A program made the translations under genes and the position numbers. From a virus (lineage: Duplodnaviria > Caudoviricetes): 64,000 nt of DNA. The number at the start of each line of letters is the position of its first letter. The first letter of the stretch is position 1. Below the pieces are notes generated by a model, which saw only the letters and a program-made list of their open reading frames with translations, was not told the origin of the DNA and did not search any database. Positions 3,470 to 52,125 of the stretch are shown here, one piece after another. The stretch lies in IMG/VR virus record IMGVR_UViG_3300042567_001420; one strand, given 5' to 3'.

Positions 3470-4241
3470 TTTTAATATCAAACTGTGAAAAATATTTACA
3501 TAAACTCTCACCAAGTACTTCTTGTGCAGAATCACTGGTCTTTTCTAATTTACCTCTGATTGTATGCAGATCTTTCAATCCCCATGCAGTATCTTTGGCT
3601 TCACCGCAAGTATTTGTGATACTATCGAACTTGTGGTCATATCTATTTATTTCCAAGAAATCGTATATCTTATTAATTGTGTCTTGAGGTGTTTGTACTA
3701 GATCATCATACTGCACAAAATATAAATTTTCTTTATAATTTTTCATGCCTATCTGTAAACTTTCCCACGGATCTCTAATATAGGATTCCCACAGTTCCAT
3801 TGCTCTTGTGTTTGTATTTATCGGCTTGCGCTTTTTTTTCAATGCTGCATCAATAAAATTGTTTGGATCTTTATTAAGTAGCTTGATGAAACTTGTGACA
3901 ACTTCCGCAACCGGTCTGTTGGTACAAATGACCTTGGGGTTTTCAGAAATGTGTAGCTTTGCTGGCATAACATTCCTTGCCCAAGCTCTGTGCTTGTCTA
4001 TAATATGAGGCTTCTTTATGCTCTCATAATATGCTTTGGGTAACGCAGTGTATATGGATGCAGATTGATTTTCAACATCAAAGGTATATTGCTGAGTAAC
4101 TCTATTGAGTGCCTCATTTTGCAGGCATAACAAATCCAATAAAGGACTTGTGGGGGAAACATATACCTCTGGATTTTGATTTAAAATTGATCCAAGCAAT
4201 GTTGAACCTGATCTAGGTAAGCCGCTTAAAAAGTATATCAT
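3459..4241 (-). CDS. Sulfotransferase family protein
   Basis: PAPS-binding loop GLPRSGSTLL, DKHRAW, VQYDDLV..P. Confidence 0.85.
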   Translation of the reverse strand: MIYFLSGLPRSGSTLLGSILNQNPEVYVSPTSPLLDLLCLQNEALNRVTQQYTFDVENQSASIYTALPKAYYESIKKPHIIDKHRAWARNVMPAKLHISENPKVICTNRPVAEVVTSFIKLLNKDPNNFIDAALKKKRKPINTNTRAMELWESYIRDPWESLQIGMKNYKENLYFVQYDDLVQTPQDTINKIYDFLEINRYDHKFDSITNTCGEAKDTAWGLKDLHTIRGKLEKTSDSAQEVLGESLCKYFSQFDIKNGI

Positions 4242-5995
4242 TGTATATTCATTCCCAAAAGTTTTTCTCTAACTTTCACAAAAGGTGCTTCCCAATCTCC
4301 GTATTTTTCTTGGCGCATCAAGGTAAAGCAATCATAATAGGGAGTACGATCTCCATCTAATGCATATAAGAAGTATGGCATAATTGGAGTAACAACCCAG
4401 GTATCAACACCCATAGCACCAGCAAGGTGACTGACAGATGTGCATGAACTAATTACCAGATCACATTCGGCAACTGCTTTACGAGTATCTTCCCATGTAT
4501 TTAATGGAACTTTTCTAACCCAGAATGGACATTCATCTTCGCCCTCATCTCTTTGCAAGCTAATAAACTCTGCATTGATACCTCGAAGTGCCTCAAACAT
4601 TAATTCTGATGGGAACTTCTTATGATGCTCATGCTCAAATTGTGGGTTGCCTTGCCATCTCAATCCAATACGCATCTTTTTGCCTTTGATTGAGAATGGC
4701 TTTCTAATGTAAGGTGCGCCGGATATGTCGTCAAGTTCTAATCCCAACGGAACAGCTGCAGACATACCTGCTACCCAGAAATCATGATATACTCCATAGA
4801 TTGATTCGTGTTGCACAACTGCGGATACACCCTCAACATCTATAAACAAAGATGCCAACATACCAGTACAACATACCATGACTTTACATCCTCGATCTGC
4901 AATAACTTTTGCATAACGAACTTGGTGTATTTGATCTCCCAATCCACCTTCAAGGTATAGCATTACGATACCTTTTGTTTTTCCATCCCACATAGGCATA
5001 GGTGTATCTGGTCTACTGTTTCCAAACACACCAACAATCCGACCACGATCCATTAGGCTATAACCTTTTTGGATTTCACCTTGACGCAAATAATACCAAC
5101 CTCTGTTATAAGCTGCTCTATGGTTAAGTGGTTCAGCTGCTTCTATTTTTTGAGAAAGTCTCCAACCTTCATCGAAGTCTCCTCGGGTACTTGCTTCGAG
5201 TTGAAAATCAAGATCGTGTTTTTCTTGTACTGTTCTTGGAGTTTTTAACCAGAACTCACCCTGACAGAATGTGGGATAATGATGCTTTAATAATTCTCTC
5301 GGGTCTTGATTATGCTGACGCTGTAGTACAGGTTTAATATCATGCATACCTGCATACCCGTGAATGTTCTCATCGTCTTCTGATACTGTAGAACCATCAA
5401 TATTCCCAAAGTCATAATTAAAATCTGGTAGACCCAAGAACTCATGAATACGTTTTAGTTCTTTCTTGGGATCTTTAACTAAATCCTCATACTCAACAAA
5501 CAGGAAATTTTCTGGGGCAAATTTATACCCTTCTTGCAATGAGATATAAGCTGCCTTCAAGTGATCCATTAACTGACCTGAATAGATAAGTTGATCTAAG
5601 TCTGTGGGTTTTGCCACACGAACAAAAGATGCAGCACAATCGGGCACGGAACGAACCGTTGCAATAACTTTAGGTCTTCTTTCAAGAACCGCAGACATGG
5701 CTGCCATAATTTGTGGAATAGGCCATCCGCGAGATTTATCTATAACAACGGGCTTGTCTACATCTGAGTAAAACGCATCAATAGTCCCTCGCATTGTTGC
5801 CGCCAATTTAGAACGATCCGCATCGTTCTCATTTAATAACCCAGCACTATGCCAAGTATTTGCCAAGCCATCTAAGGCATGGACCAACCCAGATGTTGTA
5901 CTAACATGGGTCATTGGATTTTGATTTAAAATGGCTGCCAGAACTGTAGAACCAGAGCGGGGAATGCCTGCAAGAAAATGTAGTTGTTTATTCAT
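4238..5995 (-). CDS. Sulfotransferase + TPR + GT9-like glycosyltransferase fusion
   Basis: N-terminal GIPRSGSTVL/DKSRGW/VEYEDLV; TPR-like RAAYNRGWYYL; C-terminal EGGLGDQIH, DLVISSCTSVSHLAGAMGV. Confidence 0.75.
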   Translation of the reverse strand: MNKQLHFLAGIPRSGSTVLAAILNQNPMTHVSTTSGLVHALDGLANTWHSAGLLNENDADRSKLAATMRGTIDAFYSDVDKPVVIDKSRGWPIPQIMAAMSAVLERRPKVIATVRSVPDCAASFVRVAKPTDLDQLIYSGQLMDHLKAAYISLQEGYKFAPENFLFVEYEDLVKDPKKELKRIHEFLGLPDFNYDFGNIDGSTVSEDDENIHGYAGMHDIKPVLQRQHNQDPRELLKHHYPTFCQGEFWLKTPRTVQEKHDLDFQLEASTRGDFDEGWRLSQKIEAAEPLNHRAAYNRGWYYLRQGEIQKGYSLMDRGRIVGVFGNSRPDTPMPMWDGKTKGIVMLYLEGGLGDQIHQVRYAKVIADRGCKVMVCCTGMLASLFIDVEGVSAVVQHESIYGVYHDFWVAGMSAAVPLGLELDDISGAPYIRKPFSIKGKKMRIGLRWQGNPQFEHEHHKKFPSELMFEALRGINAEFISLQRDEGEDECPFWVRKVPLNTWEDTRKAVAECDLVISSCTSVSHLAGAMGVDTWVVTPIMPYFLYALDGDRTPYYDCFTLMRQEKYGDWEAPFVKVREKLLGMNIQ

Positions 5996-49199: not shown

Positions 49200-49378
49200 T
49201 AAATTCTTTTTTCTTCTACTTGTCGTAACGAATCTTTTCGGATTAGAAATTTTCTGCTATTCTCGATACGCCTAACGTGCAAATACTCTACTCCATCAAT
49301 CAATTGTACATTCTTTAAATTGTCACAATAAAACTTTTCAGTCTTATTGAATTGATTTTCAAATATAACTACTTTCAT
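49199..49378 (-). CDS. Small hypothetical protein (59 aa)
   Basis: MKVVIFENQ..., SD AAGGAG; the stop TAG shares its G with position 1 of tRNA-Ser. Confidence 0.65.
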   Translation of the reverse strand: MKVVIFENQFNKTEKFYCDNLKNVQLIDGVEYLHVRRIENSRKFLIRKDSLRQVEEKRI

Positions 49379-49393
49379 ATTTGCTCCTTTAAA

Positions 49394-49546: not shown

Positions 49547-49549
49547 ATA

Positions 49550-49819
49550 TTATTCTTCTTCAATAACAGCAAGAACATCTTCTTCATTAATAATGCCTAA
49601 GAATTCTTCACCATTTTTGAATGGTTTTACTTTGCTCCATGACAAGTAAATTTTATCGCCTGCTTTTACTTCTTGAACATCTGGCCCTACAGAAACAACA
49701 ATACTAATTCTAGTATCATTAGATGCAAGTGCACCTTGTAGGATAATGCCACTTTCAGTTTCTTCAGGAAGTTTTTCTTCGCGAATAACAATACGATCAT
49801 GCAATGGAATAAAGTTCAT
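49550..49819 (-). CDS. groES: Co-chaperonin GroES
   Basis: PLHDRIVI...TESGIIL...VSVGPD...VKAGDKI...EEDVLAVI. Confidence 0.9.
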   Translation of the reverse strand: MNFIPLHDRIVIREEKLPEETESGIILQGALASNDTRISIVVSVGPDVQEVKAGDKIYLSWSKVKPFKNGEEFLGIINEEDVLAVIEEE

Positions 49820-49842
49820 AATTTTCTTTCTAAAAAATAAAG

Positions 49843-50359: not shown

Positions 50360-50435
50360 TGGGCAGAAGTATGGGAATCGAACCCATATTAACGGAATCA
50401 CAATCCGTGGTGTTAACCGTTACACTAACAACTGC
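50360..50435 (-). tRNA. tRNA-His(GTG)
   Basis: ACGGA-TT-GTG-AT-TCCGT, G-1:C73; two T-T mismatches in the acceptor stem. Confidence 0.85.
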
Positions 50436-50440
50436 ATATT

Positions 50441-50534
50441 ACCATATAGAAACACTCTTGTTTGGATTCGAACCTTGTTCTAGTATTGTCTATCTGCGCT
50501 TCCCACAGTGCTGACAAGAGTGCTTTTATATGGT
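50441..50534 (-). ncRNA. Long-stem spacer RNA element with a T-loop-like GGTTCGAATCC
   Basis: About 21-bp closing stem ACCATATAAAAGCACTCTTGT/ACAAGAGTGTTTCTATATGGT that includes the tRNA-Lys CCA. Confidence 0.5.
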
Positions 50535-50606: not shown

Positions 50607-50717
50607 ATTATGTTGCCTTCGCAAAGCTTTGTTGCTTTTACGATGGACTCCCGCTTTGCGTTGTAAAGCCAAAACAACGAAACGGTTACGTTGCTTGACG
50701 ATTATCTTGTGTTTCAT
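50577..50717 (-). CDS. 46-aa basic small ORF ending inside tRNA-Lys (not in the ORF track)
   Basis: SD AAGGAG; MKHKIIVKQRNRFVVLALQRKAGVHRKSNKALRRQHNASIAQLVEQ*. Confidence 0.6.
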   Translation of the reverse strand: MKHKIIVKQRNRFVVLALQRKAGVHRKSNKALRRQHNASIAQLVEQ

Positions 50718-50743
50718 AACTGCTCCTTGTTAAAAATTAAAAA

Positions 50744-51077: not shown

Positions 51078-51171
51078 ATATTGAAACACTCTCGTTCTCC
51101 ATACCTTCTTGGGGATCAATCAAGGTCTTACTTCTTAGAACCTGCGTCCAGTTTAGAATGTTTCAATATGG
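51076..51171 (-). ncRNA. Second long-stem spacer RNA element
   Basis: 17-bp stem CCATATTGAAACATTCT/AGAGTGTTTCAATATGG; 3' arm differs at 1 of 17 positions from the 50441 element. Confidence 0.5.
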
Positions 51172-51245: not shown

Positions 51246-51526
51246 AAATGCTCTGCGTCCTCCGGCGGTAATTATAGTACAAAAAAATATGACGCTATCA
51301 TATTCCCCATGCGTACCTTCCACCCGCTCCCCGACAAGGACCGCTCTCGTGCTGCCAACGGCCTTTAGGTAAAAAGACTACCACCCTTGAGTGACGAACT
51401 CACTTCGCTTCGTATGGGTCATACTAGCCAGACGTTACTCCGGCGGGTTCTAAAATGGTTGGTCCCACTTTGAGGTGCCATTTAACTTAGACTCTCTTTA
51501 TGCATTTATAGACTAAGACCATAACT
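51246..51526 (-). ncRNA. Structured non-coding RNA (GOLLD-like candidate, 3' part)
   Basis: 280-nt spacer richer in GC than its flanks, no convincing ORF; stems AAATGG/CCATTT, GCCGGA/TCTGGC, GTATG/CATAC, AGTGA/TCACT, AATATGA/TCATATT; family assignment not tested. Confidence 0.5.
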
Positions 51527-51602
51527 TGGCGGTCTGTAGGGAATTCGAATCCCTGCTACAAGCGTGACAGGCTCGCGTGCTTACCGCTAACACTAACAGA
51601 CC
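51527..51602 (-). tRNA. tRNA-Asp(GTC)
   Basis: CGAGC-CT-GTC-AC-GCTTG. Confidence 0.95.
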
Positions 51603-51612
51603 AAAAACTTTT

Positions 51613-51806
51613 TAATTGGGGGACTACGCATATCTCACAAGACCGTCTCTTGTGCCTTCTGCCTCAACATTACAGGCCCACATACTCCAGCGTGACCACC
51701 GTATCAACCTTGCGGCTTCGTTTCCATCTTTCGTGTAATATAAAAGCTCTAGTCCGTCGACTTGAACACTTGTTATATTACCTACTGGTGAGGGTAACCC
51801 CAATTA
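51613..51806 (-). ncRNA. Structured non-coding RNA with its own promoter
   Basis: 9-bp closing stem TAATTGGGG/CCCCAATTA; internal CACAAGA/TCTTGTG, ATATTACA/TGTAATGT, GCC-GCAA-GGT; starts right after the promoter at 51816-51844. Confidence 0.55.
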
Positions 51807-51815
51807 ATTAACTTA

Positions 51816-51844
51816 ATTATAACATCTTAACACACTTGTGTCAA
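51816..51844 (-). promoter_or_regulatory. sigma70-type early promoter
   Basis: TTGACA-N17-TATAAT. Confidence 0.85.
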
Positions 51845-52051: not shown

Positions 52052-52125
52052 TGGTATCCAGTAGAGGTAACGCTCCTCTGTCTCTGGCTTATCAAGCCAT
52101 TGCTCTACTATTGAGCTAACCGGAT
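52052..52125 (-). tRNA. tRNA-Ile(GAT) with a non-canonical T-loop
   Basis: TGGC-TT-GAT-AA-GCCA; T arm AGAGG-AGCGTTA-CCTCT. Confidence 0.8.

Follow-up and report, generated by a model that had tools for sequence, protein, structure and literature searches.

The uncultured T4-like phage represented by IMG/VR record IMGVR_UViG_3300042567_001420 (Duplodnaviria; Caudoviricetes), of which we analyzed a stretch of 64,000 nt (here called the window), carries 23–24 tRNA genes on the minus strand between 44.7 and 52.1 kb, together with several sigma-70-type promoters that match the consensus at 12 of 12 positions. Within this array a tRNA-Cys gene, one such promoter, a spacer of 213 nt (counted from the −10 box to tRNA-Asp), tRNA-Asp, a second spacer of 281 nt and an abutting tRNA-Leu follow each other in the 5′ to 3′ direction (Table 1). 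Each spacer holds a structured RNA, called type A in the 5′ spacer and core in the 3′ spacer, and we consider these likely to be the products of two separate genes for noncoding RNAs (ncRNAs). An earlier note on this DNA had placed all of the elements where we located them, on the minus strand; the perfect sigma-70 promoter it described was recovered in full (TTGACA-17-TATAAT with a TG extension, 51844–51816), and the domain of about 280 nt that it had seen between tRNA-Asp and tRNA-Leu measured 281 nt (51526–51246). The phage also encodes a DNA polymerase whose best phage match, at 52.5%, is to Synechococcus myoviruses, a UvsX-like recombinase and a DnaB-like helicase, which mark it as T4-like, and its close relatives are contigs that all come from lake and freshwater metagenomes.

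Table 1 Features of the locus in the 64,000-nt window, in their 5′ to 3′ order on the minus strand.
Feature	Coordinates	Strand	Basis or remark
tRNA-Cys	51932–51855	minus	a short distance upstream of the promoter
Sigma-70-type promoter	51844–51816	minus	TTGACA 51844–51839, 17-nt spacer with TG extension, TATAAT 51821–51816; 12/12 match
Predicted transcription start	near 51809	minus	prediction
Type A structured RNA gene	51815–51603 (folded body 51807–51612)	minus	minimum-free-energy fold, covariation
tRNA-Asp (GTC)	51602–51527	minus	ARAGORN and Rfam tRNA model, 55.6 bits; ordinary tRNA between both RNA genes
Leader, 75 nt	51526–51452	minus	AT-rich, two weak hairpins; directly 5′ of the core RNA
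Core structured RNA gene, ~206 nt	51451–51246	minus	covariation, 20 distinct members
tRNA-Leu (TAG)	51245–51169	minus	its 5′ end is the 3′ boundary of the core RNA

The structure of the core RNA was derived by hand and comprises ten helices, H1–H10 (the counting tool split H5 and reported eleven). H1 (51444–51439 with 51432–51427, loop GUAACG) is followed by H2 (51424–51421 with 51415–51412), whose loop ACCC (51419–51416) pairs with a GGGU located 30 nt downstream (51386–51383) to form the pseudoknot H3. The hairpins H4, H5 and H6, with the loops UCGUC, UUACCU and UGGCAGC, are accompanied by an extended arm made up of H7, H8, H9 and H10, in which a UAUAAUU bulge is conserved. In an alignment of 20 distinct sequences, 97.0% of the 946 cells belonging to the 52 pairs hold standard pairs, compared with 32–47% when the 3′ partners were slid by 1–3 columns as a control; 21 of the 52 pairs change on both sides (1–6 in the slid controls), and the covariation score is 0.251 (slid, at most 0.063). 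The pseudoknot itself shows two separate compensations, to ACAC/GUGU in one relative (L140) and to AUCC/GGAU in two others (L175 and L166), and RNAalifold independently recovers H1, H2 and H4. Amid these varying stems the loops are conserved (UAAC in L1, GAYCC, WWACC, UGGCA, ACGAGA, GUCGGG and UAUAAUU), and a covariance model of the core, R1, picks up divergent full-length copies.

The type A RNA is enclosed by a closing helix, P1, of 10 bp (51807–51798 with 51621–51612, UUAAUUGGGG/CCCCAAUUAA), inside which lie the covarying helices P3, P4 (GACG loop), P5 (GCAA loop) and P6 (GACGG loop) as well as the conserved single strands ACACGAAAGAUGGAAACGAAG and GAUACGGUGGUCACGCUGGAG. The 194-nt domain that had been described here, with a 9-bp closing stem and GNRA-capped hairpins, was recovered as a domain, with the stem corrected to 10 bp and a GNRA sequence in one loop (GCAA), the two conserved loops GACG and GACGG being of other kinds. 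The ten distinct sequences that were aligned fall into short (~200 nt) and long (~236 nt) forms; the long ones follow tRNA-Glu or tRNA-Gln in other phages (L166–L180), and one type A copy is located between tRNA-Ile and tRNA-Glu (L017). Among the ten, 92.5% of cells are paired, against 31–43% when the partners were slid, 17 of the 24 pairs change on both sides and the covariation score reaches 0.70 (slid, at most 0.14); P1 covaries too and ranges from 10 to 17 bp among members. Covariation across related phages is strong for the folds of both spacers, and both folds are maintained by compensatory substitutions.

Several other pairings and signals within the core were considered and set aside. 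RNAalifold pairs the ACCC at the 5′ end with the GGGU, but the compensations in L140 and L175 follow the H2 loop, while the 5′-terminal ACCC is unchanged or absent there; likewise, a helix ACCCGC/GCGGGU between the 5′ end and 51328–51323 was replaced by H8 (GCGGGU/ACCGC), for which a compensatory change occurs in L151. A second pseudoknot of the form GGUN/NACC, with A-U, U-A or A-A at the variable position, is possible and sterically doubtful in the short forms; type A has a candidate pseudoknot of its own, ACCAG/CUGG. The CUAUAAU near the 3′ end of the core has neither a −35 box nor a TG extension and lies between the covarying helices H9 and H8, which is why we read it as a feature of the RNA and not as a promoter. 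A likeness of ACGAGAG to the sarcin-ricin loop was dropped because other members have GAUA or GACA in place of GAGA, and because H6 takes up the ACG in pairing. On the minus strand we found no terminator-like site between the promoter at 51844 and tRNA-Leu; a hairpin followed by a T-run at 51301–51278 was rejected as a terminator, since conservation extends to its stem and UAGCG loop but not to the T-run. The word UAGCG stands at or next to hairpin loops in several of the RNAs discussed here: in the H10 loop of the core (51295–51291), twice in the type B RNA described below (L009) and twice, as GUAGCGU, in the rnaC RNA of phage T4 (L164). Type B and the H10 of L151 moreover have the 14-mer AAAUAGCGUUUGAU in common, and UAGCG may be a shared recognition or processing signal.

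In the window the core is preceded by a leader with a GC content of 0.36, compared with 0.515 for the core. The leader sequence was found only directly 5′ of the core; it is cleanly absent, as a block of 75–76 nt, from the variants L005, L136 and L146, and two lake RNA libraries likewise yielded contigs that lack it (joint 51450/51527). The 75-nt leader is a lineage-specific, optional part of the locus.

The relatives used for comparison were gathered via the upstream protein gene, the promoter word, invariant words of each spacer, and profile and covariance models. The position of tRNA-Asp is constant in them, with or without either RNA module, and the two slots that flank it vary separately. 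The slot between the promoter and tRNA-Asp occurs in three states: empty, with 12–19 nt between promoter word and tRNA (L017, L048 and others); occupied by a type A RNA, over ~213 nt (the window, L005, L050, L130 and others); or occupied by an unrelated RNA, type B, with 210–313 nt from promoter to tRNA-Asp (L002, L004, L006, L009, L012, L101 and others). Since the same promoter word directly precedes tRNA-Asp in L017 and L048, with no RNA module between, the promoter drives the tRNA sub-operon and not the RNA specifically; the word (ATAATGCTTGACA-N17-TATAAT) is present in more than 110 related viral contigs, often before protein genes. Type B, of ~200 nt, is also structured: its alignment has 93% of cells in pairs, and covariation at three positions backs a hairpin-loop pseudoknot, AUCYY/RRGAU. 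Around type B we further noticed a hairpin of ~90 nt after it (L006, 11390–11491), an element of ~80 nt preceding it (L063, ~3682–3775) and a leader, AGAAACAAGTAA, repeated threefold in its vicinity (L119, ~4825–4875).

Downstream of tRNA-Asp, the slot before the following tRNA, which is Leu or Asn, occurs in four states: 3–13 nt (L012, L101, L124 and L017), the 3′ RNA (the window, L009 and L004), an open reading frame (ORF) for an HNH-type endonuclease (L030 and L033, with an Asp-Leu junction of 517 nt) or an ORF for a 2OG-Fe(II)-oxygenase-like protein (L043, with a junction of 603 nt). All combinations of slot states occur, for example type B without the 3′ RNA in L012, L101 and L124. Of 182 loci (1.57 Mb) searched with nhmmer, 50 had the core, 34 had type B and 28 had type A; the core occurs with type A in 14 loci, with type B in 22 and alone in 14, and types A and B occur together in none of the 182. 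The covariance model finds one copy of the core per record where the core is present and finds none in two records of ~100 kb that have type A, in L012 or in L030. That types A and B exclude each other from one slot suggests that they may have equivalent jobs.

The core is also not bound to one position. It lies between tRNA-Asn and tRNA-Ala in L138, tRNA-Arg and tRNA-Ile in L140, and tRNA-Asp and tRNA-Gly in L142; it occurs in stand-alone copies (L154, L155, L145 and L160); and in L175 it has a perfect promoter of its own, 2.7 kb and 22 tRNAs away from the type A copy of the same phage. On account of the independent slot states, the varied tRNA neighbors and the stand-alone copies we conclude that type A and core are separate genes, which was the second of the two alternatives offered in the earlier note (two separate new ncRNAs); the varied array positions and orders, and the closure of each RNA through its own covarying helices, point the same way. 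Three of the stand-alone cores (L154, 8862–8975; L155, ~5520–5634; L145, ~2207–2320) have a conserved 5′ extension of ~110 nt with two hairpins, GACGG..CCGUC and GGACGAGCA..UGCUCGUCC, and a much shortened long arm, followed by a TTGACA/TAnAAT promoter for the next ORF.

We searched Rfam 15 at gathering and at permissive thresholds with the window, short sub-stretches and relatives. The search returned only tRNAs and noise (Ysr224 at 15.8 bits, FTX_1), at E ≤ 10 on stretches down to 236–291 nt, and the ROOL model (RF03087) gave no match in the window, the sub-stretches or the relatives searched. Open frames are not conserved among the variants, which differ from each other by indels of 1–2 nt. 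Among phage GenBank records only the tRNAs of the locus match, and our literature searches found no description of the type A or core RNAs. Each of the two RNAs belongs to an uncatalogued family of its own, neither of which is in Rfam 15. The words UGACCC..GAAGUGA and GGUAGU had suggested a kinship with 5S rRNA, which was rejected as chance: RF00001 gave no match, and alignment to E. coli rrfH yielded z-scores of −1.1 to 1.7. An exact invariant 19-mer of the core, looked up in 185,579 prokaryote species genomes, gave two chance matches only, and the metagenome matches of this word in L149 and L152 are likewise due to chance; as far as this one word can tell, which divergent members lack, the core would fit a family confined to phages.

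Pieces of the locus are also present in RNA libraries, namely in four metatranscriptome assemblies from lakes and fresh water. One contig of 170 nt covers type A only (51624–51790; X3 record 19), whereas a contig of 599 nt runs from tRNA-Cys through type A and tRNA-Asp into a leaderless core, stopping at 51247, a single base short of the 5′ end of tRNA-Leu (X1 record 5); further RNA-library contigs cover the core. In a third assembly (X2), short contigs over 44 nt of a conserved part of the core (51308–51351) reach a summed depth of ~870–1150, about equal to that of tRNA-Ala-like contigs of the same run, which suggests a very abundant RNA, contig depth being a poor measure; neither the depths nor the uncovered parts are evidence of expression level or absence.

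Taken together, these observations lead us to the view that this uncultured T4-like phage of fresh water quite probably has, within its tRNA operon, two independent structured ncRNA genes, whose products would be co-transcribed with the tRNAs, released by tRNA processing and active in trans. The type A RNA would be the first product of a strong early-type promoter, and both RNAs would be freed from the common transcript by the tRNA-processing enzymes of the host. Their 3′ ends would be set by the RNase P cut at the 5′ end of the next tRNA and their 5′ ends by 3′ trimming of the preceding tRNA or by the start of transcription, after which the RNAs may act in trans as stable RNAs. It is the existence of copies with their own promoter and without a tRNA neighbor that argues for action in trans. 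Because invariant loops are combined with freely covarying stems, a conserved binding partner is suggested, which would probably belong to tRNA or translation metabolism or to host defense.

This organization resembles that of the species 1 and species 2 RNAs of phage T4 (rnaC, 139 nt, and rnaD, 119 nt), which are the closest analogues. These are structured non-tRNA RNAs encoded head to tail with tRNA genes; they lie directly after tRNA-Arg with spacers of 1–6 nt, in an array that also contains the homing endonuclease gene segB. The T4 RNAs arise on one transcript with the tRNAs, from which tRNA-processing enzymes excise them, and no function is known for them so far. The release route proposed for the window RNAs is the same and also resembles mitochondrial 'tRNA punctuation'. 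Taken as a class by function and not by homology, T4-type small stable RNAs are marked by a head-to-tail position with the tRNA genes of a T4-like phage in one transcription unit, which is the arrangement found here, and by release through tRNA processing and accumulation as stable RNAs; on the latter, the RNA-library contigs provide cover of both RNAs and one end at 51247, and contigs are no reliable guide to ends, strand or abundance. However, rnaC and rnaD are shorter, whereas the window RNAs are ~200 nt long and the core is pseudoknotted; there is no detectable sequence similarity, BLAST with rnaC and rnaD returning only words of 9–13 nt, mostly T-arm-like and matching tRNAs as well. Furthermore, rnaC has a tRNA-like T-arm (CCGGGTTCGAATCCCGG), and neither window RNA has one.

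Some observations weigh against two processed, trans-acting RNAs. The RNA evidence consists of contigs and not of reads, and ends, strand, processing and stability cannot be read from contigs; RNA-library contigs may contain DNA carry-over, and the X1 contig that spans the promoter, the tRNAs and both RNAs is as compatible with DNA as with a precursor before processing. The proteins encoded next to the stand-alone cores belong to no informative family and give no functional hint. Many of the contigs compared are fragmentary, and incomplete records therefore form part of the basis for saying that A and B never share a locus and that each RNA family occurs without the other. Finally, the 3′ domain has a thermodynamic z-score of −0.45, no better than chance, and the 5′ domain one of −2.39; taken alone these scores are weak, covariation is strong for both domains, and we regard z-scores as a poor guide here.

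A more far-reaching version of the functional argument would take type A and type B as non-homologous RNAs with the same job, which together with the core form a modular RNA machine, a kind of split mini-GOLLD that assembles in trans and acts on tRNAs or translation, or disarms host defenses that target tRNAs, in the course of infection. We regard such a machine as unlikely.

Somewhat more doubtful still is the idea that both RNAs are cis-acting parts of the operon, that is, leaders or spacers that tune the order or rate of tRNA processing, the protection of the transcript, or read-through. The RNAs do nearly always abut tRNA genes, the 5′ module stands between the promoter and the first tRNA, and the 75-nt leader behaves as a dispensable spacer. 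But in L154, L155, L145, L160 and L175 the core has a promoter to itself or lacks any adjoining tRNA, close relatives lack either module at the same junctions, and invariant loops, a pseudoknot and ten helices exceed what a spacer needs, and we consider this explanation improbable.

The first alternative in the earlier note, and the one in its heading, was a single GOLLD-like RNA of about 560 nt with an embedded tRNA, and one may picture a molecule of ~570–600 nt whose halves are joined through tRNA-Asp and which is perhaps multimeric like GOLLD. In GOLLD RNAs the 3′ region is conserved and the 5′ region variable, the linker between them sometimes contains tRNAs, and many members exceed 800 nt (PMC12286853), well above the total size here. 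A variable 5′ part, a tRNA and a conserved 3′ part are indeed real at this locus, and the X1 contig covers all of them. However, the GOLLD model (RF02032, gathering score 150 bits) has no match at threshold in the 64-kb window and none at E ≤ 10 on 1301 or 291 nt, and in four related phage records (54–112 kb) its best score is 11.6 bits, elsewhere in the genome; membership in GOLLD or ROOL, as judged by the Rfam models at E ≤ 10 on 291–1301 nt, is not supported. The parts are inherited independently and occur without each other, up to the distance seen in L175, with other tRNAs or none between them; each part closes upon itself, and no helix joins the two. GOLLD is a single RNA, whereas here two separable genes of ~200 nt each fill the spacers of 213 and 281 nt, and the pattern of a variable 5′ and a conserved 3′ half is an accident of two adjacent RNA-gene slots. 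GOLLD and ROOL are alike only in habitat: they are ncRNAs of phages and prophages, of unknown function, with covarying helices and pseudoknots, often beside tRNA islands, and a location beside phage or prophage tRNA genes, which the window RNAs have as well, is not specific to GOLLD. We therefore hold a single joined RNA to be very improbable.

We give no more room to the proposal that the core is related to the specificity domain of RNase P or mimics it, binding the tRNA elbow and possibly forming a split RNase-P-like enzyme with type A or B. H1 (CCGGA-GUAACG-UCUGG) resembles GCTGGGTAACGCCCAG of a bacterial RNase P RNA, a stretch that we take to be P8 of the fold; the core is located among tRNAs, and many loci have it together with A or B. 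The likeness ends with this one hairpin with a GUAAC-type loop and the tie to tRNAs, the topology of the core being a string of hairpins plus one long arm and not a P7-closed junction. RNase P models (RF00010 and relatives) gave no match at E ≤ 10 on the 291 nt with the 3′ RNA or on type B, a genuine type-A RNase P RNA aligned locally with a score of 30, at chance level (27.9 ± 5.0 for shuffled sequences), P4-like strands were seen in neither type A nor type B, and the core is missing from the ~100-kb records that have type A.

That the modules are decaying and functionless leftovers of mobile inserts, for instance of homing-endonuclease cassettes or pseudo-tRNAs, is barely credible: relatives do carry an ORF at the same junction, for an HNH endonuclease or otherwise, and array positions vary as they do for mobile DNA, but compensatory changes keep more than 90% of pairs across members with only about half of their sequence in common, the loops are invariant, and there is no similarity to tRNAs or ORFs.

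Structured RNAs with covarying helices, pseudoknots and invariant loops usually do a precise molecular job, as ribozymes, riboswitches or RNA-protein scaffolds. Two such families, with type B as a third, none of them in Rfam 15, are present in the tRNA operons of abundant uncultured lake phages and turn up in lake RNA libraries, and together with T4 species 1 and 2, GOLLD and ROOL they belong to a growing, unexplained class of phage ncRNAs tied to tRNA genes. Nature has in effect provided experiments from which function might be approached, in the clean swap between types A and B and in the modules that are present in one phage and absent from a near-identical one, the practical limit being that no cultured host-phage pair is known for the lineage of the window.

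The surrounding array shows further features. As in T4 with segB, the tRNA array is a hotspot of insertion. Most other spacers measure 2–10 nt, much as the earlier note had said of the array, but five further ones are long, at 91, 96, 137, 194 and 296 nt (51078–51168, 50435–50530, 50607–50743, 49200–49393 and 49547–49842, respectively, all on the minus strand). The 91-nt and 96-nt spacers form long-stem hairpins with the common word ATATTGAAACA/ATATAGAAACA, and the 296-nt spacer contains an ORF of 89 codons; relatives have additional tRNA spacers of ~220 and ~290 nt (Pro-Asn, Val-Arg). Six sigma-70 promoters with a 12/12 match lie within 9 kb on the minus strand (52215–52187, 51844–51816, 50034–50006, 47920–47892, 52954–52926 and 44052–44024), and the longer word ATAATGCTTGACA-N17-TATAAT is present in at least two of them, those at 51844 and 50034; its TGCTT, which partly coincides with the −35 box, has the look of a T4 MotA box. 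One more tRNA, at 52125–52055 on the minus strand, was found by Rfam (53.8 bits) and missed by ARAGORN, and relatives have tRNA-Ile(GAT) at this position.

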